From an uncultured Candidatus Saccharibacteria bacterium (GTDB lineage Bacteria > Patescibacteriota > Minisyncoccia > Phycocordibacterales > UBA9973), in contig CAZUQJ010000001.1 of NCBI GenBank assembly GCA_964622505.1, forward strand, positions 116,957 through 180,956: DNA of 64,000 bases. Reading direction: 5' to 3'. A program made the position numbers and the translations under genes. Shown piece after piece: positions 2,401 to 18,084 of the stretch; position 1 is the first letter of the stretch, and every line of letters begins with the position of its first letter. The notes under the pieces are model-generated. The model made no database searches and was not told where the DNA came from. It saw only the letters and a program-made list of their open reading frames with translations.

Positions 2401-5400
2401 TTGTGGTATTATGATTCTATAAATATGCATGAATATATAAAAAACATAGCTCAAAAATTTGCTCGCAATGATGTAGCAAATGGACGCGAAATGATATACC
2501 GTACTGATTTTGAGAATCTTTTGAAAGATATTTTTCAGGCTGACGGCAAGGTGACTCAAATTAATCACGACTCTACTAGTGATAATGGTAACAAGCCTGA
2601 TTTTGTAATTTCAAAAAACGGTGTACCAATTCTATATATTGAAGCAAAAGATATTGGGGTAGATCTTAATAAGATCGAAAATAGTAATCAAATGCATCGT
2701 TATTTTGGCTATGGTAACCTAATTTTGACGGATTATGTAGAATTTCGTTTTTACAGAAACGGTGAAAGATATGGAAATCCTATTAGTATTGCTAGTATTG
2801 ATAAATTAAATCGTACAATATCCGAACTTTCGCAAAACTTTTCATTACTTTCTAAAACTATTACCGACTTTGCTTCTTCTTACAAAGAGCCTATTAAAAA
2901 AGGTTCTCATTTGGCAAGAATAATGGGAGGTAAGGCAATGCGTATTCGAGATAATGTAAAAGATATGCTCCTTAGTGATAATGAAAAATTTAGTGACTTA
3001 CAAAAAATTTTGAATGTTGTGAAAGAAAATTTAGTAGCTAGTTTAGATAACGAAACATTTGCAGACATGTATGCTCAGACGTTGGTTTATGGATTGTTTG
3101 CGGCAAGATATAATGATAAATCTCCAAATGATTTTTCTCGATCAGAGGCAAGAGATCTGGTGCCTAAAACAAATCCATTTTTGAGAGAATTTTTTAATCA
3201 CATTGCTGGACCATCTTTTCCAGATAGGCTTCGTTATATTGTAGATGAACTTTGCGAAGTTTTTACACATGCAAATGTACATACACTTATGCATGAATAT
3301 TTTAAAAAAGAAAATTTATTTGGTGAAGTATATGAAAGTCCTGACCCAGTAATCCATTTTTACGAAGATTTTCTAAAAGAATATGATATAAAAAAGAAAA
3401 TGGAAATGGGAGTATTTTATACTCCACGACCTGTTGTGAGGTTTATTGTGCGAGCAGTTGATGACATTTTAAAAAATGAATTTGGTCTTGCCAGAGGTCT
3501 TGCTGATACTACAAAAATCCAAATAGAAAAAAAGGAAATTGATCAAAAAACTGGTAAAGAAAAGAAAGTCCAAAAAGAATATCATAAAGTTCAAGTTCTT
3601 GATATTGCCACAGGTACAGGTACATTCCTTAATGAGGTCATCCATAATATTTACGCAAATTTTTCTGGACAAGAAGGCCGTTGGGTATCGTATGTTGAAA
3701 ATGATTTATTGCCAAGATTACATGGTTTTGAGTTAATGATGGCATCGTATACTATTGCTCATTTGAAATTAGGTATGACCTTGTATGACACAAAGGCTGG
3801 TGATCTGAAAACTCGTCTCGGGGTTTACCTTACAAATACACTGGACGCTCCCGTAGACTACGCTAATCAAGGTAGTTTGTTTGGATTAATGGATAGTATT
3901 GCCCAGGAGAGTAAAAATGCATCTAGAATAAAATCTGAATACCCGATAATGTGTGTTATTGGCAATCCTCCATATTCAGGCATTTCAATGAATAAGCAGT
4001 ACACAGAAAATAATGATTACAAAGTTGAAATCGGTGGTAAACAAAAATTACAGGAAAAGAAAAATTGGCTCGATGATGACTATGTTAAATTTATTCGATT
4101 TGCAGAAAGCTTGATTGAGAAAAATGGTGAGGGTATAGTAGGAATGATCACCGCCCATGGCTATATAGATAACCCAACATTTCGTGGTATGCGTTGGCAT
4201 TTACGGAACACTTTTGACAAAATATATGTTTTAGACTTGCATGGTAATAGTAATAAAAAAGAAACAAGCCTTGATGGCAGCAAAGACGAAAATATTTTTG
4301 ATATTAAAACAGGTGTATCAATAATTTTGGGTATTAAAAAGCAAGGTAATATAAAAGATAAAAAATTAGCTCAAATCTACAAATCAGATTTTTATGGCCT
4401 TCGTAAAGATAAATTTAAAAATATTGAAAATGCAACTATCGATAATTTAAACTGGACAGAGCTCCCAGAAAACAGTGATTTGTGGGTATTAGAAGGAAAA
4501 GGTAAATTAGAATATAAAAAAGGTTTTTCGATGACAGAAATATTTCCCAAAAATACTACTGGTATAGTCACTATGGGGGATAGTTTTATTATCGATGAAA
4601 ATAGGGATGTTTTAACAAAAAGAATTGATGAATTTTTGCAAAATGATATATCTGAGAATGACCTAAAGCATAAATATGATTTAGGTAAAAATTACGCAAA
4701 GTGGATTATTGATAATAAAAAGAAAATCGAAAATAATCATTTAAAAATAGTACCGCTGTCGTATAGGCCTTTTGACATAAGGTATACTTATTTTGATAAA
4801 AATTTGGTATGGAGAACTAGAGGTGATGTAATGTACGGTTTAGTAAAAAAAGAAAACCTAGGCTTAGTTTTTGCTAGGTCACAAAGGAATCCTGAATTTA
4901 ATGCCGTTTTTATTTGTAACTCTATAATAGAGACCAAGTGCGGTGAAGCAAGTACTCAATCAGCTGTAGCCCCTATTTATTTATACACAGAAAACGGAGA
5001 AAAAATTTCCAACTTAAATAAAGAAATTTGGAATAAGATTAATGATGTGGTGGGTAATACTACACCCGAAGATATTTTGGATTATATTTATGCAAGTCTG
5101 CATTCGCCAAAATACCGCGAAACTTACAAAGAATTTTTAAAAATTGATTTTCCTAGAGTTCAATACCCAACTGACAAAAAAGAATTTGAAAGACTGGTAA
5201 AGCTTGGCTCAAAATTACGAGAACTTCATTTAATGACTGATCCAGAATGTGAAAATTTAATTACAACTTATTCACAATCGGGTAGTGATGTAGTAGAAAA
5301 GGTAAAATATGAAAATGGTAATGTTTATATAAACGACGCGCAGTATTTCGGCAATGTACCAGAAATTTCATGGAGTTTCTATATAGGTGGCTACCAACCT

Positions 5401-5523
5401 GCTCAAAAATACCTTAAAGACAGAAAGGGTAGAAAACTAACCAATGAAGAAATTGAGCATTATCAAAAAATCATTAAGGTATTGTTTGAAACTGATAAAT
5501 TAATGAAGGAAATAGATAAGTAG
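2401..5523 (+). CDS. Type IIG (MmeI-family) restriction-modification enzyme: an N-terminal PD-(D/E)xK nuclease fused to a gamma-class N6-adenine DNA methyltransferase and a C-terminal specificity domain. The likely true start is the Met at 2425.
   Basis: N-terminus KPDFVIS...ILYIEAKD (PD-ExK) aligns with the MmeI N-terminal layout. VLDIATGTGTFL matches MTase motif I and CVIGNPPYSG motif IV (NPPY). The protein is 1040 aa. Confidence 0.8.
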   Translation: MWYYDSINMHEYIKNIAQKFARNDVANGREMIYRTDFENLLKDIFQADGKVTQINHDSTSDNGNKPDFVISKNGVPILYIEAKDIGVDLNKIENSNQMHRYFGYGNLILTDYVEFRFYRNGERYGNPISIASIDKLNRTISELSQNFSLLSKTITDFASSYKEPIKKGSHLARIMGGKAMRIRDNVKDMLLSDNEKFSDLQKILNVVKENLVASLDNETFADMYAQTLVYGLFAARYNDKSPNDFSRSEARDLVPKTNPFLREFFNHIAGPSFPDRLRYIVDELCEVFTHANVHTLMHEYFKKENLFGEVYESPDPVIHFYEDFLKEYDIKKKMEMGVFYTPRPVVRFIVRAVDDILKNEFGLARGLADTTKIQIEKKEIDQKTGKEKKVQKEYHKVQVLDIATGTGTFLNEVIHNIYANFSGQEGRWVSYVENDLLPRLHGFELMMASYTIAHLKLGMTLYDTKAGDLKTRLGVYLTNTLDAPVDYANQGSLFGLMDSIAQESKNASRIKSEYPIMCVIGNPPYSGISMNKQYTENNDYKVEIGGKQKLQEKKNWLDDDYVKFIRFAESLIEKNGEGIVGMITAHGYIDNPTFRGMRWHLRNTFDKIYVLDLHGNSNKKETSLDGSKDENIFDIKTGVSIILGIKKQGNIKDKKLAQIYKSDFYGLRKDKFKNIENATIDNLNWTELPENSDLWVLEGKGKLEYKKGFSMTEIFPKNTTGIVTMGDSFIIDENRDVLTKRIDEFLQNDISENDLKHKYDLGKNYAKWIIDNKKKIENNHLKIVPLSYRPFDIRYTYFDKNLVWRTRGDVMYGLVKKENLGLVFARSQRNPEFNAVFICNSIIETKCGEASTQSAVAPIYLYTENGEKISNLNKEIWNKINDVVGNTTPEDILDYIYASLHSPKYRETYKEFLKIDFPRVQYPTDKKEFERLVKLGSKLRELHLMTDPECENLITTYSQSGSDVVEKVKYENGNVYINDAQYFGNVPEISWSFYIGGYQPAQKYLKDRKGRKLTNEEIEHYQKIIKVLFETDKLMKEIDK

Positions 5524-5554: not shown

Positions 5555-6256
5555 ATGAATTCTGAAGAGCTAAAAATTAAAGAAAATGCAGAAGAATTCG
5601 CAAGGTCGAATAAAAAGAAAATTGCGAAAGACATAATTTCTTTGTATGAATCAGAGCCGAATCCTGTTTCTGTTTTCATGGCAGGATCTCCTGGTGCAGG
5701 CAAAACAGAATCTTCGAGGTGGCTTATTAAAAAACTTACAGGGAACGACGATTCTATTTTAAGAATTGACCCTGATGAGTTGAGGAAATATTTTGAAGAA
5801 TACAACGGAAAAAATTCTAATTTATTTCAAGGTGCAACATCTATACTTGCAGAAAAAATACACGATTTTGCAATTGATGGTAGTAAGAGTTTTGTTTTTG
5901 ATACAACTTTTTCTAAATTAAATAAAGCTCAACAAAATATTAAAAGATCACTAGACCACAAAAGATCAGTCCAAATAATATATGTTTATCAAGACCCTTT
6001 GCAAGCTTGGGAATTTGTGAAGGCACGTGAATTAAAAGATGGAAGAAATGTTCCAAAAGATTCATTTATCGAAGAGTACTTTAATGCTAGAGTTGTAGTA
6101 AATCAGATAAAAAAAGATTTTCCAGATATTACATTATATATACTTATAAAGAATATTGACGGGACAACCGAGAAATATAAAGAAAATGTTGACAGTATTG
6201 ACAAATATGTTAAAGAGAACTATACTATCGATAGTTTAAATAATGTGTTACAATAA
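5555..6256 (+). CDS. Zeta-toxin-like P-loop kinase (zeta toxin / AAA_33 family)
   Basis: Walker A FMAGSPGAGKTES, followed by ILRIDPDELR and then FVFDTT. This spacing mirrors zeta/PezT. Length 233 aa; a TGtAAAAT -10-like element sits about 9 nt upstream. Confidence 0.6.
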   Translation: MNSEELKIKENAEEFARSNKKKIAKDIISLYESEPNPVSVFMAGSPGAGKTESSRWLIKKLTGNDDSILRIDPDELRKYFEEYNGKNSNLFQGATSILAEKIHDFAIDGSKSFVFDTTFSKLNKAQQNIKRSLDHKRSVQIIYVYQDPLQAWEFVKARELKDGRNVPKDSFIEEYFNARVVVNQIKKDFPDITLYILIKNIDGTTEKYKENVDSIDKYVKENYTIDSLNNVLQ

Positions 6257-7899: not shown

Positions 7900-8151
7900 A
7901 TGGAACAAAATAAAAAATGTCCGGGGTGTCAAAGTTGTTTAATGCCTTTTAATAAAGATACAGGGGTAAGAGAGAGCGATATATATTGCAGTCTGTGCTA
8001 CAAGGACGGCAAGTTGTGTTACGAGGGTAGCTTAAAAGAATTTCAAAAAATTGTTTATCAAAACATGCGTAAAAATGGGCTAGGATGGTTCAAAGCAAAA
8101 ATGTATACATACATGATTCGCTTCGCCCCACGGTGGAAGAATAAAAAGTAA
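7900..8151 (+). CDS. Zinc-ribbon domain protein
   Basis: CPGCQSC...GVRESDIYCSLCYKDGKLCYEG resembles a Zn_ribbon_2-type C4 arrangement. Confidence 0.5.
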   Translation: MEQNKKCPGCQSCLMPFNKDTGVRESDIYCSLCYKDGKLCYEGSLKEFQKIVYQNMRKNGLGWFKAKMYTYMIRFAPRWKNKK

Positions 8152-8156
8152 CATAC

Positions 8157-8189
8157 AAAAAAGCCTAATCAATTGATTAGGCTTTTTTG
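8157..8189. terminator. Bidirectional intrinsic terminator between convergent genes
   Basis: Perfect palindrome gcctaatcaattgattaggc flanked by an A-run and a T-run. Confidence 0.7.
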
Positions 8190-8413
8190 ATAAATTCGGT
8201 TTTTAAAACTATGCCACGCATGCCGTCTATACTGCATTCTATCTCACCCTCTTCATCGGTTAGGCGAATGTTTTTGGCTTTGGCACCCTTTTTGATAACA
8301 GTGCTACTGCCTTTTAATTTTAAATCTTTGATTAATATAATACTGTCACCATTGGCCAGTATATTACCATTGGCGTCGCGTTGTATAACTACATCTTCGT
8401 CTTCATTTTCCAT
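8177..8413 (-). CDS. PhnA/YjdC C-terminal-domain-like small protein
   Basis: …NGNILANGDSIILIKDLKLKGSSTVIKKGAKAKNIRL…IECSIDG…LKTEFIKKA matches the PhnA domain pattern. Confidence 0.55.
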   Translation of the reverse strand: MENEDEDVVIQRDANGNILANGDSIILIKDLKLKGSSTVIKKGAKAKNIRLTDEEGEIECSIDGMRGIVLKTEFIKKA

Positions 8414-10782: not shown

Positions 10783-10911
10783 ATGGCAAAAAAAGTAGTA
10801 AAAGTAAAAAAGGAGATTAAGCATGTGACCAATGACATGATGCACAACAAGAAGGAATTCGCTGTAAAGCACCCACCGAATTTAAAACCAAAAGGAAAGC
10901 GTGCAAAATAA
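10783..10911 (+). CDS. Small very basic protein (42 aa; MAKKVVKVKKEIKH…KPKGKRAK)
   Basis: Hand-translated ORF absent from the ORF track (under 60 aa). Lys-rich; starts 13 nt after the upstream stop. Confidence 0.3.
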   Translation: MAKKVVKVKKEIKHVTNDMMHNKKEFAVKHPPNLKPKGKRAK

Positions 10912-12415: not shown

Positions 12416-12504
12416 TTTGCTTTTAAGCCTTGAAAATGCTAAGATGTCAATATATCGTAATAATTAACTAAATAAATATCCGCCTTGAGCGGAAGAAAAT
12501 ATAT

Positions 12505-13113
12505 ATGGGAAATTTTGATCGAGGAGGTAACAGAGGAGGAGGAGGCGGAGGCGGAGGATTTCGCGGTGGTAATAGTGGTGGCCGACCAAGCTTCAACAAA
12601 AAGCCTTGGGGTGGAAACGATCGTGGAGGCGACAAACGTGCAGAGATGCACAAAGCAACTTGCAGTGAATGTGGCAAGATGTGCGAAGTGCCTTTCCGTC
12701 CATCAAGCGACAAGCCAGTGTTTTGTAACGACTGTTTTAGTAGCAAGCGTGAAGGTGTAGATCGCAAGCCACGTGCAGATTTCAATGATCGTGCACCACG
12801 ACGTGAATTTGATCGTCCAGCACCAAGACCAGACATGGTTCGTGTTGCGCCAGCAAACGATGAAGTCAAAAATCAACTTCGTGATTTGAATTCTAAAATG
12901 GATCGTCTCGTAACTCTAATGGAAAAGATGACAAATTCATCAGCACCCAAGGTTGCACCAATGATTACAAAACCAGCTGAAGTGAAAAAGGTAGTAGTAG
13001 CTTCAAAGCCTGTTGCTAAAGTTAATCCGCCAGCTGGCGGAAAGAAAGTTGTAGCAAAAGCACCGGCAAAGAAGTTAGTAGCAAAGAAGCCTGTGGCAAA
13101 AAAGAAGAAATAA
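12505..13113 (+). CDS. Nucleic-acid-binding-like protein with a Gly/Arg-rich N-terminus, a C4 zinc ribbon resembling the YacG type, and a Lys/Ala/Pro-rich histone-H1-like tail
   Basis: GGNRGGGGGGGGFRGGNSGG; CSECGKMCEVPFRPSSDKPVFCNDCF (compare YacG CxxCGK…PFRPFCSxRC); C-terminal KKVVAKAPAKKLVAKKPVAKKKK. Confidence 0.5.
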   Translation: MGNFDRGGNRGGGGGGGGFRGGNSGGRPSFNKKPWGGNDRGGDKRAEMHKATCSECGKMCEVPFRPSSDKPVFCNDCFSSKREGVDRKPRADFNDRAPRREFDRPAPRPDMVRVAPANDEVKNQLRDLNSKMDRLVTLMEKMTNSSAPKVAPMITKPAEVKKVVVASKPVAKVNPPAGGKKVVAKAPAKKLVAKKPVAKKKK

Positions 13114-13121
13114 TAAAATCC

Positions 13122-13152
13122 AAAAAATACTTGTCCAAGACAAGTATTTTTT
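13122..13152 (+). terminator. Rho-independent terminator
   Basis: atacttgtc-caa-gacaagtat hairpin followed by T6. Confidence 0.7.
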
Positions 13153-13167
13153 GTTATAATTAAATTT

Positions 13168-15393
13168 ATGAGACTTACTTGGGTAAAATATATTTTTTTA
13201 TTGACTTTTGCTTTATTATTTGTGAATAATAAAACTTTTGCTGCAACAACTATTTTTTCGGATAGTTTTAATAATGATTATGGTGAATTATCGACCCATA
13301 CCCCTACAACAGTGGGTACTAGTTGGACGCGATTGGTAAACAACGGTGTCGACTTATATGTTCAAAGCTATAACAATCACGTAACCGTTCAGTCAAACTC
13401 AAGTAACCTTGGTTCAATTTATGTAGCCAACGGTACATATCCAGACGCTGATTACGAAATTTCGGCCGACGCTTTGTTTGCAGCAGGTGATTCTAACTAT
13501 CCTCGATCATTAATATTACGCGCTCAAGATTCTAGTAATATGTATTTGCTTCGTAGTACGAATACGACAATGACAATTTATAAAAGAGTTTCTGGTACGT
13601 GGACATCACTTGGTTCAGGCGGTAGTGTTGGATTATCTGATAATACAGTCTCACCGTACTATATTGCAACACTAACATTTAGTGCTGTAGGTACAACTTT
13701 GACAGGTAAAGTAAATGGAGTCACCAAAGTAACTGTAACTGATAGTAGTATTACAAGTGCTGGTAAGGCAGGTATTGGCTTGGGGTACACAGCAGTTTCA
13801 ACTGATGATGGAGGGACAGGGGTAGGGATAGACACTGTTTTGGTTCAGACCGCTACTTCAGATTCAACAGCACCAACAATTACATCTGTTTCCTCTGATA
13901 AAACGAACGGTTCGTATACTGTTGGCGAAGTAATTGATATTGATGTTACTTTTAGTGAAGCCGTCACATCAACAGGTGATGTAACAGTAACATTAGAGAC
14001 AGGCGCAACTGATCGGACATGTACATTTACTGTATCAAACAGTAGTACGGGAACTTGTAATTATACTGTTCAATCTGGAGACACAACAAGTGATTTAACT
14101 GTAAATACAATATCGGGCACAATTGCTGATCAATCAAGTAATGCAATGACTGATTTTGCATCTACAACCAATTTAGCAGCCAATAAGGCTTTAGTGATTG
14201 ATACTACCGACCCAACAGTGCAATCACTTGCACCAGCAGATAATGAAACAAATTTCTCGCCTACATCAGTTTTTTTGATGACATTCAACCAGGCAGTTGA
14301 TGTTGAAACAGGGAATATTACGATTAAAAAAACATCTGATAATTCTACAGTTGAAACAATTAGTGTAAGTGGTGGATTGGTTACAGGCACTGGGACAACT
14401 GTTATTACCATTGACCCGTCTACAAATCTTTCAGATCTTACAGAATACTACATTTTAGTAGATGCTACCGCCTTTGATGATGCCGCAGGTAATAGCTATG
14501 CTGGTATTAGTTCAACCACGGCATGGAGTTTTACAACAGGAGATATAACAGCACCAACAATTACATCTGTTTCCTCCGATAAAACGAACGGTTCGTATAC
14601 TGTTGGCGAAGTAATTGATATCGACGTAACTTTTAGTGAAGCTGTAACTTCTACTGGTAACGTAACTGTTACGCTTGAAACTGGTACAACTGATCAAACA
14701 TGTACATTTACTGTTTCAAACAGCAGTACAGGAACCTGTAATTATACTGTTCAAGCCGGAGACACGACCAGTGATTTAACGGTCAACACTATTTCAGGCA
14801 CCATTGCTGATCAATCTAGTAATGCTATGTCTAACTTCGTACCAACTACAAACCTGGCTGCGAATAAAAATATTGTTATTGATACAACCGTACACATAGT
14901 GTCATCCACTAGCACTTCAGCAAGTGCACGAGTTCAAAATTTAATTAATATGGGGAAAATACAAGAAGCTCAACAAGTGGCAAAAGAATTTCCTAATTCA
15001 GTTCCAAAAAATTTATTAAATAATAAATTAATTTTAATACCTGTAAAACCAATAGAAAATATACAAAAAATAACCCCCAAAATTACTGAAATTAAAAAAG
15101 AAAATAATTTAGCAAGAGTAGAGCCAATTGTAGAAAATATTTTGCCAGAAGTTAACACAAATACAGAATCAAAAAAGAAAAAAATAATAAATAAAACTTT
15201 AAAAAGTTCAATGATTGACCCAGAAGTTAAAGCCTTACAAGAGTTCTTGCAAATTGACCCGCCGACAGGAAAGTTTGGAGCATTAACTTATAAAGCAGTA
15301 ATTAATTTTCAGAGAAAAAATAATTTAATACCTGATGGTATTGTAGGCCCAAAAACAAGAGCAGTAATAAATAAATTACTTTACGAAGCATAA
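13168..15393 (+). CDS. Secreted cell-surface protein with a signal peptide, two near-identical Ig-like modules flanking an SbsA/Big_5-like Ig domain, and a C-terminal peptidoglycan-binding (PG_binding_1) domain
   Basis: N-terminal hydrophobic signal; the roughly 115-aa repeat APTITSVSSDKTNGSYTVGEVIDIDVTFSEAV… occurs twice; C-terminal …LIPDGIVGPKTRAVINKLL matches the PG-binding motif. Confidence 0.65.
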   Translation: MRLTWVKYIFLLTFALLFVNNKTFAATTIFSDSFNNDYGELSTHTPTTVGTSWTRLVNNGVDLYVQSYNNHVTVQSNSSNLGSIYVANGTYPDADYEISADALFAAGDSNYPRSLILRAQDSSNMYLLRSTNTTMTIYKRVSGTWTSLGSGGSVGLSDNTVSPYYIATLTFSAVGTTLTGKVNGVTKVTVTDSSITSAGKAGIGLGYTAVSTDDGGTGVGIDTVLVQTATSDSTAPTITSVSSDKTNGSYTVGEVIDIDVTFSEAVTSTGDVTVTLETGATDRTCTFTVSNSSTGTCNYTVQSGDTTSDLTVNTISGTIADQSSNAMTDFASTTNLAANKALVIDTTDPTVQSLAPADNETNFSPTSVFLMTFNQAVDVETGNITIKKTSDNSTVETISVSGGLVTGTGTTVITIDPSTNLSDLTEYYILVDATAFDDAAGNSYAGISSTTAWSFTTGDITAPTITSVSSDKTNGSYTVGEVIDIDVTFSEAVTSTGNVTVTLETGTTDQTCTFTVSNSSTGTCNYTVQAGDTTSDLTVNTISGTIADQSSNAMSNFVPTTNLAANKNIVIDTTVHIVSSTSTSASARVQNLINMGKIQEAQQVAKEFPNSVPKNLLNNKLILIPVKPIENIQKITPKITEIKKENNLARVEPIVENILPEVNTNTESKKKKIINKTLKSSMIDPEVKALQEFLQIDPPTGKFGALTYKAVINFQRKNNLIPDGIVGPKTRAVINKLLYEA
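13870..14217 (+). repeat. Intragenic direct repeat, copy 1 (about 340 nt, roughly 90% identical to copy 2)
   Basis: gcaccaacaattacatctgtttcctc… recurs at 14551. Confidence 0.7.
14551..14889 (+). repeat. Intragenic direct repeat, copy 2
   Basis: In-frame duplication 681 nt downstream of copy 1. Confidence 0.7.
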
Positions 15394-16403: not shown

Positions 16404-16458
16404 TGAAATAAAAAGCAACATTTTTGCTATTTAGTCAATATTTTGCTATAATACACAC

Positions 16459-17028
16459 ATGAAGATAACTAAAGCATTTTTTATAAAAGGTGTTGTTGGT
16501 ACAGACGAAATACTCGACGATGGTGTGCCACAGATAGCATTTATCGGGCGCTCCAATGTAGGCAAGTCGACAACTATAAATGCCATCACCTCACAAAACA
16601 AGCTCGCAATTACGAGCTCTTTTCCTGGCCGAACTCAACAGATAAATGTATTCTCTGTAAACAACTCAGTGTATTTTATGGATCTACCAGGCTACGGCTA
16701 TGCACGAGCCAGTGGCAAAGGGCGCGAGAAAATCCAAGAGCTGATCTACTGGTACTTTTTCAACTCACACTACGTCCAAAAGTATGTTGTGGTGATTATA
16801 GACGCTGAAGTTGGTCCGACAAAAGACGACCTTGAAATGCTCCACCATCTTGAAGTTGCAGGGAAGAGTGTTTTGATCATTGCCAACAAGATAGACAAGA
16901 TTAAAAAATCAGCATACCAAAAGCAAATGAATACTCTATCTAAACTTCTTCCCAAATACAAAATTATCCCTTTCTCGGCCCTGAAGAAGACCGGGGTTCA
17001 AGAGGTAATAGATACTATTCTTGCCTAG
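16459..17028 (+). CDS. engB: Ribosome-biogenesis GTPase EngB/YsxC
   Basis: GRSNVGKSTTINAI G1 motif and DLPGYGYA. TGcTATAAT lies 6 nt upstream of the ATG. Confidence 0.8.
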   Translation: MKITKAFFIKGVVGTDEILDDGVPQIAFIGRSNVGKSTTINAITSQNKLAITSSFPGRTQQINVFSVNNSVYFMDLPGYGYARASGKGREKIQELIYWYFFNSHYVQKYVVVIIDAEVGPTKDDLEMLHHLEVAGKSVLIIANKIDKIKKSAYQKQMNTLSKLLPKYKIIPFSALKKTGVQEVIDTILA

Positions 17029-17052
17029 TGTATTTCGTGTTATAATACTCAT

Positions 17053-18084
17053 ATGACAAATAAAAATATTCAATTGTATTTCTTTATTGCACTGTTGTGC
17101 GTTGTGTTCCTTTTAAATGTTGCACTATTTTTACCTTTTCTTACTTTGTTTGCCGTTATCGCTATTTTTGCCGTAGTGTTTTATCCACTGTTCAACAAGC
17201 TTAAAAAAAGATTGTATAACAATGGCAATGTAGCTGCATTTGTAACGATTATTATTGCAGCAATTATTGTGCTCTTGCCACTAACTTTCTTTACCATTCA
17301 AGTATTTCTCGAAGCTAAAAGCATTTATGCCAATTTAGATTCCTTCCAAAGTACATTATCTGGATTGTCTTCGACTCTCAACATGAAGCTTGGAACTTTG
17401 ATCCCAAATGCTTCGATTGACCTCTCTTCTTATTTAGCATCAATTTTTAGTGGGTTGACTACGAGTATTGGGAGTGTGTTTTCAAGCGTCCTACACTTTA
17501 CGACCGTCGTATTCATCAGCTTTGTTGCACTCTTTTTCTTTCTGCGTGACGGCAAAAAATTTATCAATAAACTCATAGCTACAAGTCCGCTTGACGATGT
17601 CCATGATCAGAAAATTCTCGCCAAGCTCAAACTAACTATTAGCGCAATCATCAAAGGGTCTCTTGTTATTGCGGCCATCCAAGGCTTGCTGACATGGATA
17701 GGATTTTTGATTTTTGGCATTCCAAATCCGGCGCTCTGGGGCGCATTGACAGTATTTGCATCACTTATCCCTGGTATTGGTACTGCGATTGTGATCACTC
17801 CTGCAATCATATATCTTTTCAATGTAGGTACGCTCTTTAATGCAGTAGGTCTTCTTGTGTGGGGCGTGGTCATTGTGGGGCTTATAGACAATGTGGTCCG
17901 TCCGGTACTTGTCGGTAAAGATGTTGATATTCATCCATTTATGGTACTGATGTCTATCTTTGGAGGATTGCTTATGTTTGGAGCTATCGGATTCTTGCTC
18001 GGACCACTCCTGCTCTCATTCTTTACCGTCTTAATAGAACTATACCCGACTATTACCAAAGGTGTACTTGATAAAAAAGAATAA
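17053..18084 (+). CDS. AI-2E family (UPF0118/PerM-like) membrane transporter
   Basis: 8-TM protein with …LIPGIGTAIVITPAIIYLF… typical of the AI-2E family. Confidence 0.55.
   Translation: MTNKNIQLYFFIALLCVVFLLNVALFLPFLTLFAVIAIFAVVFYPLFNKLKKRLYNNGNVAAFVTIIIAAIIVLLPLTFFTIQVFLEAKSIYANLDSFQSTLSGLSSTLNMKLGTLIPNASIDLSSYLASIFSGLTTSIGSVFSSVLHFTTVVFISFVALFFFLRDGKKFINKLIATSPLDDVHDQKILAKLKLTISAIIKGSLVIAAIQGLLTWIGFLIFGIPNPALWGALTVFASLIPGIGTAIVITPAIIYLFNVGTLFNAVGLLVWGVVIVGLIDNVVRPVLVGKDVDIHPFMVLMSIFGGLLMFGAIGFLLGPLLLSFFTVLIELYPTITKGVLDKKE

Follow-up and report, generated by a model that had tools for sequence, protein, structure and literature searches.

The CxxC-x17-CxxC family, to which the protein examined here belongs, includes small proteins of Methanosarcina mazei, two of which, A00184 and A01980, bind zinc as determined by inductively coupled plasma mass spectrometry (ICP-MS; PMC12704099). 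The same study counts the M. mazei group among the small proteins detected with the highest confidence and puts forward transcription as a starting hypothesis for its members (PMC12704099). This was the only experimental paper on the domain that was found. The literature search returned no paper naming TIGR04272, PF23477 or zf_Tbcl_2 and none linking Patescibacteria, zinc finger and RGG (Arg-Gly-Gly) motifs, and the supplement of the Southlakia transposon-insertion sequencing (Tn-seq) study held no entry recognisable as a member of the CxxC-x17-CxxC family. Here we describe a gene of this family located at 12505..13113 (+ strand) in a 64,000-nt stretch of contig CAZUQJ010000001.1, hereafter the window, from an uncultured bacterium of the Patescibacteriota. 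Its product has the same four Cys as the other members of the family, the same VPF[RK]P...[KR]PV.C..CF signature and similar G/R-rich basic flanks. The preliminary description of this gene had read the product as a chimera of an RGG-rich head, a zinc ribbon like that of the gyrase inhibitor YacG and a histone H1-like tail, and had proposed it as an unusual nucleoid protein.

Parts of this design are known from other systems. CNBP/ZNF9, the plant zinc-knuckle glycine-rich cold-shock proteins, FUS/EWS/TAF15 and the retroviral nucleocapsid carry zinc fingers within RGG-type or basic disordered regions. The window protein resembles them by analogy in having small fingers, often in tandem among its relatives, with Arg/Gly spacers, a layout that yields multivalent binders and chaperones of single-stranded nucleic acid. 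However, their fingers are of the CCHC knuckle or RanBP2 type, unrelated to the Cys4 x17 finger and without sequence homology to it, and these proteins are eukaryotic or viral, whereas the window protein is bacterial. The tails of H1, Hc1/Hc2, AlgP and HupB are examples of regions that neutralise or bridge DNA. The Lys/Ala/Pro-rich, low-complexity cationic repeats of chlamydial Hc1/Hc2, Pseudomonas AlgP and the mycobacterial HupB C-terminus are like the tail of the window protein, but the likeness is compositional only, and the rest of the window protein has no counterpart there.

Family membership and protein architecture

The open reading frame (ORF) at 12505..13113 starts with ATG and encodes 202 amino acids (aa) followed by a stop codon. 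The protein begins with MGNFDRGGNRGGGGGGGGFRGGNSGGRP, ends with GGKKVVAKAPAKKLVAKKPVAKKKK and has a pI of 10.3 by composition analysis. A public record (P0001) holds an identical protein, and 977 homologues were retrieved at E<=1e-3, all about 175-220 aa long. Over 120 relatives, M1, G2, the four zinc-ligand Cys, V62, P63, F64, P66, K70, F78 and L135 were invariant or nearly so. Taken together with the promoter-like site and the terminator-like hairpin that bracket the ORF, the identical record, the homologues and the invariant residues indicate that this is a genuine gene and not a chance frame. The frame and all of the sequence features listed in the preliminary description were found where it had placed them. 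An antisense ORF of 133 aa (12468-12869, - strand) and further shadow ORFs overlap the gene, owing to the GGN/CCN-rich, low-complexity composition of its + strand coding sequence; only the + frame, and not the overlapping antisense ORF, is backed by conservation.

The identity of the zinc finger was established by profile searches. PF23477 (zf_Tbcl_2) matched aa 47-82 with 62.1 bits (cut-off 27; 3.8e-17) over profile positions 2-37 of 37, and the NCBIfam model TIGR04272, "CxxC-x17-CxxC domain-containing protein", matched with 61 bits (cut-off 36; 6.3e-17). All 120 close relatives matched PF23477 as well. Both family signatures occur in the window protein: VPF[RK]P, which follows the first knuckle, and [KR]P[VI].C..CF, which includes the second. 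In an alignment of 38 diverse domains the F and the second P of VPF[RK]P were invariant, and the V, the first P and the final F were at least 90% conserved. By these sequence matches, the window protein is shown to be a member of the CxxC-x17-CxxC / zf_Tbcl_2 family. Pfam describes PF23477 as a 'probable treble clef zinc finger', and the invariant Cys4 set together with the predicted fold suggests that each finger holds one zinc ion.

The YacG-like ribbon of the preliminary description did not hold up in these comparisons. The YacG profile PF03884 matched neither the whole protein nor the isolated finger at E<=10 and none of the 120 relatives at E<=0.01, while E. coli YacG, its sequence confirmed by the Pfam score, matched as a positive control with 1.6e-24. 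BLASTP of the window protein against YacG returned E=0.96. An hhalign comparison of a profile of 29 diverse fingers with YacG aligned 22 columns with a probability of 33% and P=4.4e-4 (single comparison); the alignment, which includes a gap of 4 residues, is confined to the first CxxCGK knuckle and PFRP and leaves the second Cys pair unaligned. Both proteins thus have a small Cys4 finger with a local CxxCGK...PFRP stretch, and a topology of knuckle, hairpin and helix is plausible in both. They differ in ligand spacing (CxxC-x15-CxxxC in YacG, CxxC-x17-CxxC in the window protein) and in the register of PFRP, which is separated from the first knuckle by 6 residues and from Cys3 by 7 in the window protein, against 10 and 1 in YacG. 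The C-terminal Trp/acidic segment of YacG is its gyrase-contacting part. Neither BLASTP nor hhalign aligned a counterpart of this segment in the window protein, in which the residues after the finger are Arg/Phe/Pro-rich; conversely, the RGG head, the coiled coil and the lysine tail are all absent from YacG. Of the two observations that would have refuted the preliminary description, one was made: the ribbon belongs to a different family. The other was not, as the four Cys and PFRP are conserved, PFRP being the PF[RK]P signature of the CxxC-x17-CxxC domain and not a YacG feature. A gyrase-interacting ribbon is unsupported given the differences in family, ligand spacing and PFRP register; at the level of sequence families the YacG reading is already refuted, and it is extremely improbable that the protein is a gyrase inhibitor of the YacG type with chromatin-like tails attached.

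Solved structures gave no match by sequence or by profile, and Foldseek against the PDB returned nothing below E=1 and no neighbour signal to YacG; the weak structural neighbours of the finger include eS26 and uS14. PRDM9 appeared repeatedly at sub-threshold level in the PDB profile search and was rejected as spurious, the C2H2 linker TGEKPY.C resembling TGDKPVYC. This resemblance lies in aa 67-77 of the finger (12703-12735), where [TS]G[DE]KPVYCxxC is similar to the Krueppel-type C2H2 linker TGEKPYxCxxC.

The anatomy of the protein was investigated with alignments of 24 and 120 relatives and an AlphaFold2 (AF2) run with the 120-sequence alignment. The modular reading of the preliminary description, in which a head rich in RG/RGG and a Lys-rich H1/Hc-like tail flank a Cys4 zinc finger, was borne out, and the number of modules rose from three to five, all conserved in both alignments; the linker repeat and the amphipathic helix had been absent from it. 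The N-terminal arm (aa 1-46; 12505..12642, +) is Gly/Arg/Phe-rich and predicted to be disordered, with a predicted local distance difference test (pLDDT) score of ~50. It contains 19 Gly and 6 Arg, about half of its residues, and its first residues, MGNF, are almost invariant among relatives. RGG triplets start at aa 6, 10, 20 and 40. RGG regions are classed as di-RGG when they contain RGG-x0-4-RGG and as tri-RGG when they contain three such triplets. The pair at aa 6 and 10 makes the window protein di-RGG but not tri-RGG; among the 120 close relatives 66 are di-RGG and 32 tri-RGG, so that the strict definitions together cover 98.

The arm is followed by the Cys4 zinc finger (aa 47-82; 12643..12750, +), supported by the PF23477 and TIGR04272 matches, the invariant Cys and the AF2 model. 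Its ligands are arranged as C53-x2-C56-x17-C74-x2-C77, with residues 57-73 between the pairs, and the Cys segment CSECGKMCEVPFRPSSDKPVFCNDCF corresponds to aa 53-78. The consensus reads M48-H-K-A-x-C53-x-x-C56-x-x-x-C60-E-V-P-F-R-P66-x-x-x-K70-P-V-[YF]-C74-x-x-C77-F78-x-x-K-R, with E61-V-P-F-R-P66 as the signature. Of the ligands, C53, C74 and C77 do not vary over the 120 aligned sequences and C56 hardly does, and all four are invariant in the diverse-domain alignments, including archaeal-type repeats; a fifth Cys, C60, is conserved within the subfamily only. AF2 placed strands at 49-52 and 59-62, which form a hairpin; a helix then runs from the second Cys pair over residues 75-83. A domain-only model had the same hairpin-plus-helix topology at pLDDT 84. 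The predicted fold, with knuckle, hairpin and helix, is treble-clef-like, which matches Pfam's name for the family.

The third module is an Arg/Phe/Pro-rich linker (aa 83-115; 12751..12849, +) with two DRxPRxxF units, seen in the alignment and predicted to be disordered, in which R87, R90, F93, R96, P98 and F102 are nearly invariant over the 120 relatives. Next comes a conserved amphipathic helix (aa 118-144; 12856..12936, +) modelled with pLDDT >90. Its a/d positions are V121, L125, L128, M132, L135, M139 and M142, an unbroken 4-3-4-3 pattern over ~3.5 heptads, and its motif is Q124-L-x-x-x-N-x-K131-[LM]-D-R-L135, with Q-L-x-x-L-N-x-K-L-D-R-L as a stricter form. This pattern suggests a coiled-coil oligomerisation element through which the chains probably dimerise. 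A local hidden Markov model (HMM) search of ~0.86 Mb of related DNA found the helix motif in no other ORF. The protein ends in a Lys/Ala/Val/Pro-rich tail (aa 145-202; 12937..13110, +), predicted to be disordered and terminating in AKKPVAKKKK; in the last 60 residues (143-202) Lys occurs 17 times, Ala and Val 11 times each and Pro 8 times, and the net charge is +16. Outside the hairpin, the finger helix and the long helix, the AF2 model was of low confidence, consistent with disorder.

Distribution across Patescibacteria and beyond

The distribution was assessed with one genome per GTDB species, and architectures were read from the ORFs of the 80 best loci kept, with counts given over 81 diverse loci. 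The species scan gave at least 599 pattern matches and at least 579 confirmed relatives. Almost all of the 80 best loci are titled Patescibacteria or Candidatus Nomura-, Paceibacterota, Kaiser-, Adler-, Taylor- or Vogel-, with further titles naming Davies-, Shapiro-, Magasanik-, Falkow- and Peribacteria. ORFs from the best loci all share one plan of head, finger, linker, helix and tail. The preliminary description had called the protein chimeric and unusual; since the same plan recurs across loci, and in at least 579 species-level genomes, almost all of them Patescibacteria, the architecture is standard for a subfamily found throughout the phylum rather than a rare fusion.

Several automated third-party annotation (TPA) records of metagenome-assembled genomes (MAGs), among them loci L031, L039, L041, L045, L046, L049, L053, L059 and L060, are titled 'uncultured Gammaproteobacteria' or 'Saccharibacteria'. 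Given the gene itself and the contig sizes (for example, one contig of 785 kb), these titles on Patescibacteria-type loci may be unreliable.

Over the 81 loci the median head length was 47 aa, and G+R accounted for a median fraction of 0.42 of the head. One finger was present in 72 of the proteins and two in the other 9, and the helix motif was kept in 72. The last 40 residues had a median net charge of +11; the tail was strongly basic in 58 loci and neutral or acidic in 7. Sequence comparison thus shows a Patescibacteria-wide subfamily with a fixed plan and one finger, sometimes two or three, of which the H1-like lysine tail is, by alignment, the least conserved and most dispensable module. 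The acidic or neutral tails (for example EEGEEMEDGEEVEEGEEEE) occur in L049, L053, L046, L064, L035, L041 and L059, where head, finger and helix are retained. Tandem fingers are carried by L025, L045, L055, L071, L072, L073, L078, L082 and L084 and by the proteins P0121-P0129; in two-finger forms of Patescibacteria the second finger stands in place of the Arg/Phe linker of the window protein.

A phmmer search of the full library with the finger only gave 5163 cluster representatives at E<=1e-3, and the top matches are 110-340 aa long and carry 2-5 tandem fingers with R/G/D-rich spacers in between. The profile search added many stand-alone forms of 45-80 aa from Archaea (Thermoplasmatota, Nanoarchaeota, Aenigmarchaeota, Thaumarchaeota, Methanoperedens) and some bacteria (Omnitrophica, Gemmatimonadales), which have short G/R/F-rich heads and basic ends. 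Several of the archaeal ones are named 'DNA-directed RNA polymerase' in their source, a name that is unsupported. While the archaeal and other bacterial members are mostly single domains of 45-80 aa or pure tandem arrays, the Patescibacteria subfamily adds a long RGG head, the conserved heptad helix and usually a lysine-rich tail. Because G/R/F-rich heads and basic ends recur in the short forms of archaea and bacteria, the RGG-plus-finger core is, as read from these sequences, the old and shared part of the family.

To look for functional partners, three genes on each side of the 81 loci were grouped by BLAST clustering and Pfam labels. There was no conserved operon partner: no family occurred in more than 10 of the 81 loci, and positions and orientations varied. 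The most frequent neighbours were an ABC-F-like ATPase (10 loci), a YgjP-like protein (9), SWIB (5), BipA (5), an EngB-like GTPase (4) and PIF1 (4). The mild excess of translation GTPases and ATPases was not strong enough to use, because common descent and the gene repertoire of reduced genomes may account for it.

Proposed nucleic-acid binding and its alternatives

With moderate confidence, we favour a zinc-dependent, probably coiled-coil-dimerised, multivalent nucleic-acid binder, with RNA or single-stranded nucleic acid as the preferred ligand and with ribosome association included as a sub-case. The four invariant Cys would hold one zinc ion and fold the finger into a beta-hairpin and a short helix with the basic residues K81 and R82. 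Two or more chains would pair through the heptad helix, and the resulting particle, with several fingers and flexible cationic arms, could bind nucleic acid in a multivalent manner. Its ligand would be RNA or single-stranded nucleic acid, and its role that of a chaperone, an annealer or a ribosome/RNA coating. RNA or a single-stranded ligand is favoured because the universally kept core is the RG/RGG/FG-rich region with the zinc finger, because this core is often multiplied in tandem with R/G spacers, as in the CNBP-like design, and because the lysine tail, which is of the DNA-condensing type, varies between lineages. The nucleoid-protein idea of the preliminary description is in part retained here, in that a nucleic-acid-binding role is reasonable, whereas its gyrase ribbon falls away.

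Several points weigh against this reading. We infer both nucleic-acid binding by family members and, from the heptad pattern by itself, their dimerisation. Fusions to known RNA- or DNA-handling domains were not seen among the top 120-150 matches listed. The neighbourhood of the 81 loci provides no functional partner, with SWIB and PIF1 at the few loci given above besides the ABC-F-like, BipA and EngB-like genes. Moreover, Lys/Ala/Pro tails are best documented as DNA condensers in bacteria, and RGG regions bind DNA and proteins too.

The last two points lead to a nucleoid-associated protein, in which the Lys tail and the RGG head would neutralise and bridge duplex DNA and the finger and the coiled coil would give specificity and cross-linking. 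The K/A/V/P tail with its net charge of +16, the strongly basic tails of the 58 diverse relatives, and the SWIB-domain, PIF1 helicase and methyltransferase-type DNA-binding neighbours at some loci are in line with this, as is a weak match of 5 of the 120 relatives to HC2 (PF07382; best E 5.6e-5), although these matches are low-complexity and compositional only. The window protein itself matched none of HC2, Hc1, the linker histones or any other histone family at E<=10, so that of the H1/Hc1-like tail the Lys-rich composition stands and the profile match does not. The tail is also the module that has been conserved least, being neutral or acidic in 7 lineages that keep head, finger and helix; the ancient stand-alone homologues have no such tail, and no conserved linkage to replication or topology genes was found. 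On balance a nucleoid function is less likely than RNA binding but a serious alternative. A ribosome-associated factor, or a lineage-specific ribosomal or assembly protein of Patescibacteria that docks on rRNA, would be a special case of RNA binding. It would suit a small, basic, phylum-wide zinc-finger protein with eS26 and uS14 among its weak structural neighbours, with ABC-F-like, BipA or EngB-like genes within three genes at 19 of the 81 loci, and with relatives that are detected very confidently as small proteins in M. mazei (PMC12704099). However, the positions and orientations of these neighbours are not constant, reduced genomes abound in translation genes in any case, the gene never lay inside a ribosomal-protein operon among the loci examined, and the highly variable lengths of head and tail, together with two or three fingers in some members, would be odd for a fixed ribosomal component. 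We therefore regard this more specific assignment as unlikely.

Less probable still is a transcription factor that acts on RNA polymerase through a Cys4 finger of the DksA/TraR or TFIIB type. The DksA/TraR finger has a ligand spacing of x2-x17-x2, and its CxxC-x17-CxxC arrangement is that of the window protein; in both, the finger is combined with a coiled-coil element. The module order is reversed, though, and the acidic motif at the tip of the coiled coil is missing from the window protein. Kinship with DksA/TraR was rejected, as hhalign against E. coli DksA gave a probability of 3.6% and there was no Pfam match to zf-dskA_traR, nor to TFIIB or an RNA polymerase subunit. No solved RNA polymerase subunit matched the domain profile (RpoP, E=0.59). 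The 'DNA-directed RNA polymerase' names of several archaeal homologues point in this direction but are backed by no test that was found, and transcription served as the starting hypothesis in the M. mazei paper (PMC12704099).

Gene context and significance

A consensus scan placed a putative promoter-like site, a consensus match only, at 12430..12458 (+), composed of TTGAAA, a 17-nt spacer and TATCGT. An alternative -10 hexamer, TATATC, lies just upstream of TATCGT, and the leader would be ~40 nt long. The block TTGAAAATGCTA..TGTCAATATAT is common to the window and the locus of the closest relative (L002). Within the leader, a small hairpin (TCCGC-CTTGA-GCGGA; 12479..12493, +) ends 12 nt 5' of the start codon and is followed by an A/T-rich stretch without a Shine-Dalgarno sequence. 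Folding of the leader gave a minimum free energy (MFE) of -7.1 kcal/mol and z = -2.2, against a median z of -0.53 over 75 loci. Per-sequence folding shows the hairpin in close relatives only, so that it is not a family-wide element, and RNAalifold found no conserved leader structure, the hairpins being out of register. At L002, L008, L011, L012, L013, L019 and L022, hairpins of differing sequence occupy the same place, ~12-25 nt before the start and after a conserved AATAAC; in the close relatives an A-rich tract follows the hairpin. The leader hairpin could be an mRNA-stabilising or autoregulatory element.

Downstream of the gene, a strong intrinsic-terminator-like hairpin of 15 pairs followed by a T-run is located at 13121..13153 (+); as it is symmetric, it could act on both strands. 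Judged by these elements, the gene forms a transcription unit by itself, equipped with a promoter-like site, a leader and a terminator. The window genome seems to be nearly free of Shine-Dalgarno sequences and rich in leaderless genes (for example at 13153-13170, 16440-16461 and 17035-17055). A TATAAT-like hexamer ends 4-11 nt before the ATG in 19 of 58 long ORFs, compared with 3.8% of all ATGs, and a Shine-Dalgarno-like core precedes 2 of the 58, compared with a background of 5.8%. With its leader of ~40 nt, the present gene is an exception to the leaderless trend.

Upstream of the gene are genes for a VIT1 transporter and a YgjP-like metallopeptidase, neighbours that are common to the closest relatives only. 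Downstream (13168-15393, +), a 741-aa Ig-like surface protein is encoded, with a Big_5 Ig-like domain and a C-terminal peptidoglycan-binding domain; it contains a long internal direct repeat in which APTITSVSSDKTNGSYTVGEVIDIDVTFSEAVTSTG...TISGTIADQSSNAM occurs twice, nearly identically. A 42-aa lysine-rich ORF (MAKKVVKVKKEIKH...KPKGKRAK; 10783-10911, +) that has no family assignment is annotated as a gene on L001, the public contig matching the window. The only other ORF of the window with a CxxC...CxxC pattern is at 7900-8151 (+) and encodes 83 aa with CPGC-x19-CSLC; it matches PF12674 (Zn_ribbon_2), is unrelated to the protein studied here and is convergent with a PhnA/YjdM-domain gene (8177-8413, -). 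A single-polypeptide restriction-modification enzyme with Type ISP and N6-methylase domains (2401-5523) adjoins a zeta-toxin family kinase (5555-6256), a defence/addiction-type pair a few kb upstream, and an S24 peptidase is encoded elsewhere in the window. Matches to PHROGs and PADLOC that would indicate a phage or defence origin of the gene were not found, and the window contains no Rfam families and no tRNAs.

The proposed surprise is absent: the chromatin-like tails are not joined to the finger of a gyrase inhibitor. For the window the outcome is a refined annotation and not a discovery: the protein is already in public collections, its relatives are annotated as 'CxxC-x17-CxxC domain-containing protein', and the family, of which this is a further member, is catalogued. 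What remains is an architecture conserved across a phylum that holds a large share of bacterial diversity, without a conserved genomic partner, and in which RGG arms, a zinc finger and a coiled coil are combined in a design usually tied to eukaryotic RNA-binding proteins. Tentatively, and with less confidence than the general nucleic-acid-binding role, the protein could be a Patescibacteria-wide, abundant RNA chaperone or ribosome/RNA-coating factor of this eukaryote-style RGG-plus-zinc-finger kind, for which condensates would be possible through the coiled coil and the disordered cationic arms. If so, it would replace RNA-folding or ribosome-assembly functions that were lost from the reduced genomes, possibly with autoregulation through its own structured leader. 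The identity of the ligand would fill in a recurrent 'hypothetical' gene of Patescibacteria and would shed light on its small zinc-binding homologues, which feature prominently in the small-protein proteomes of archaea.

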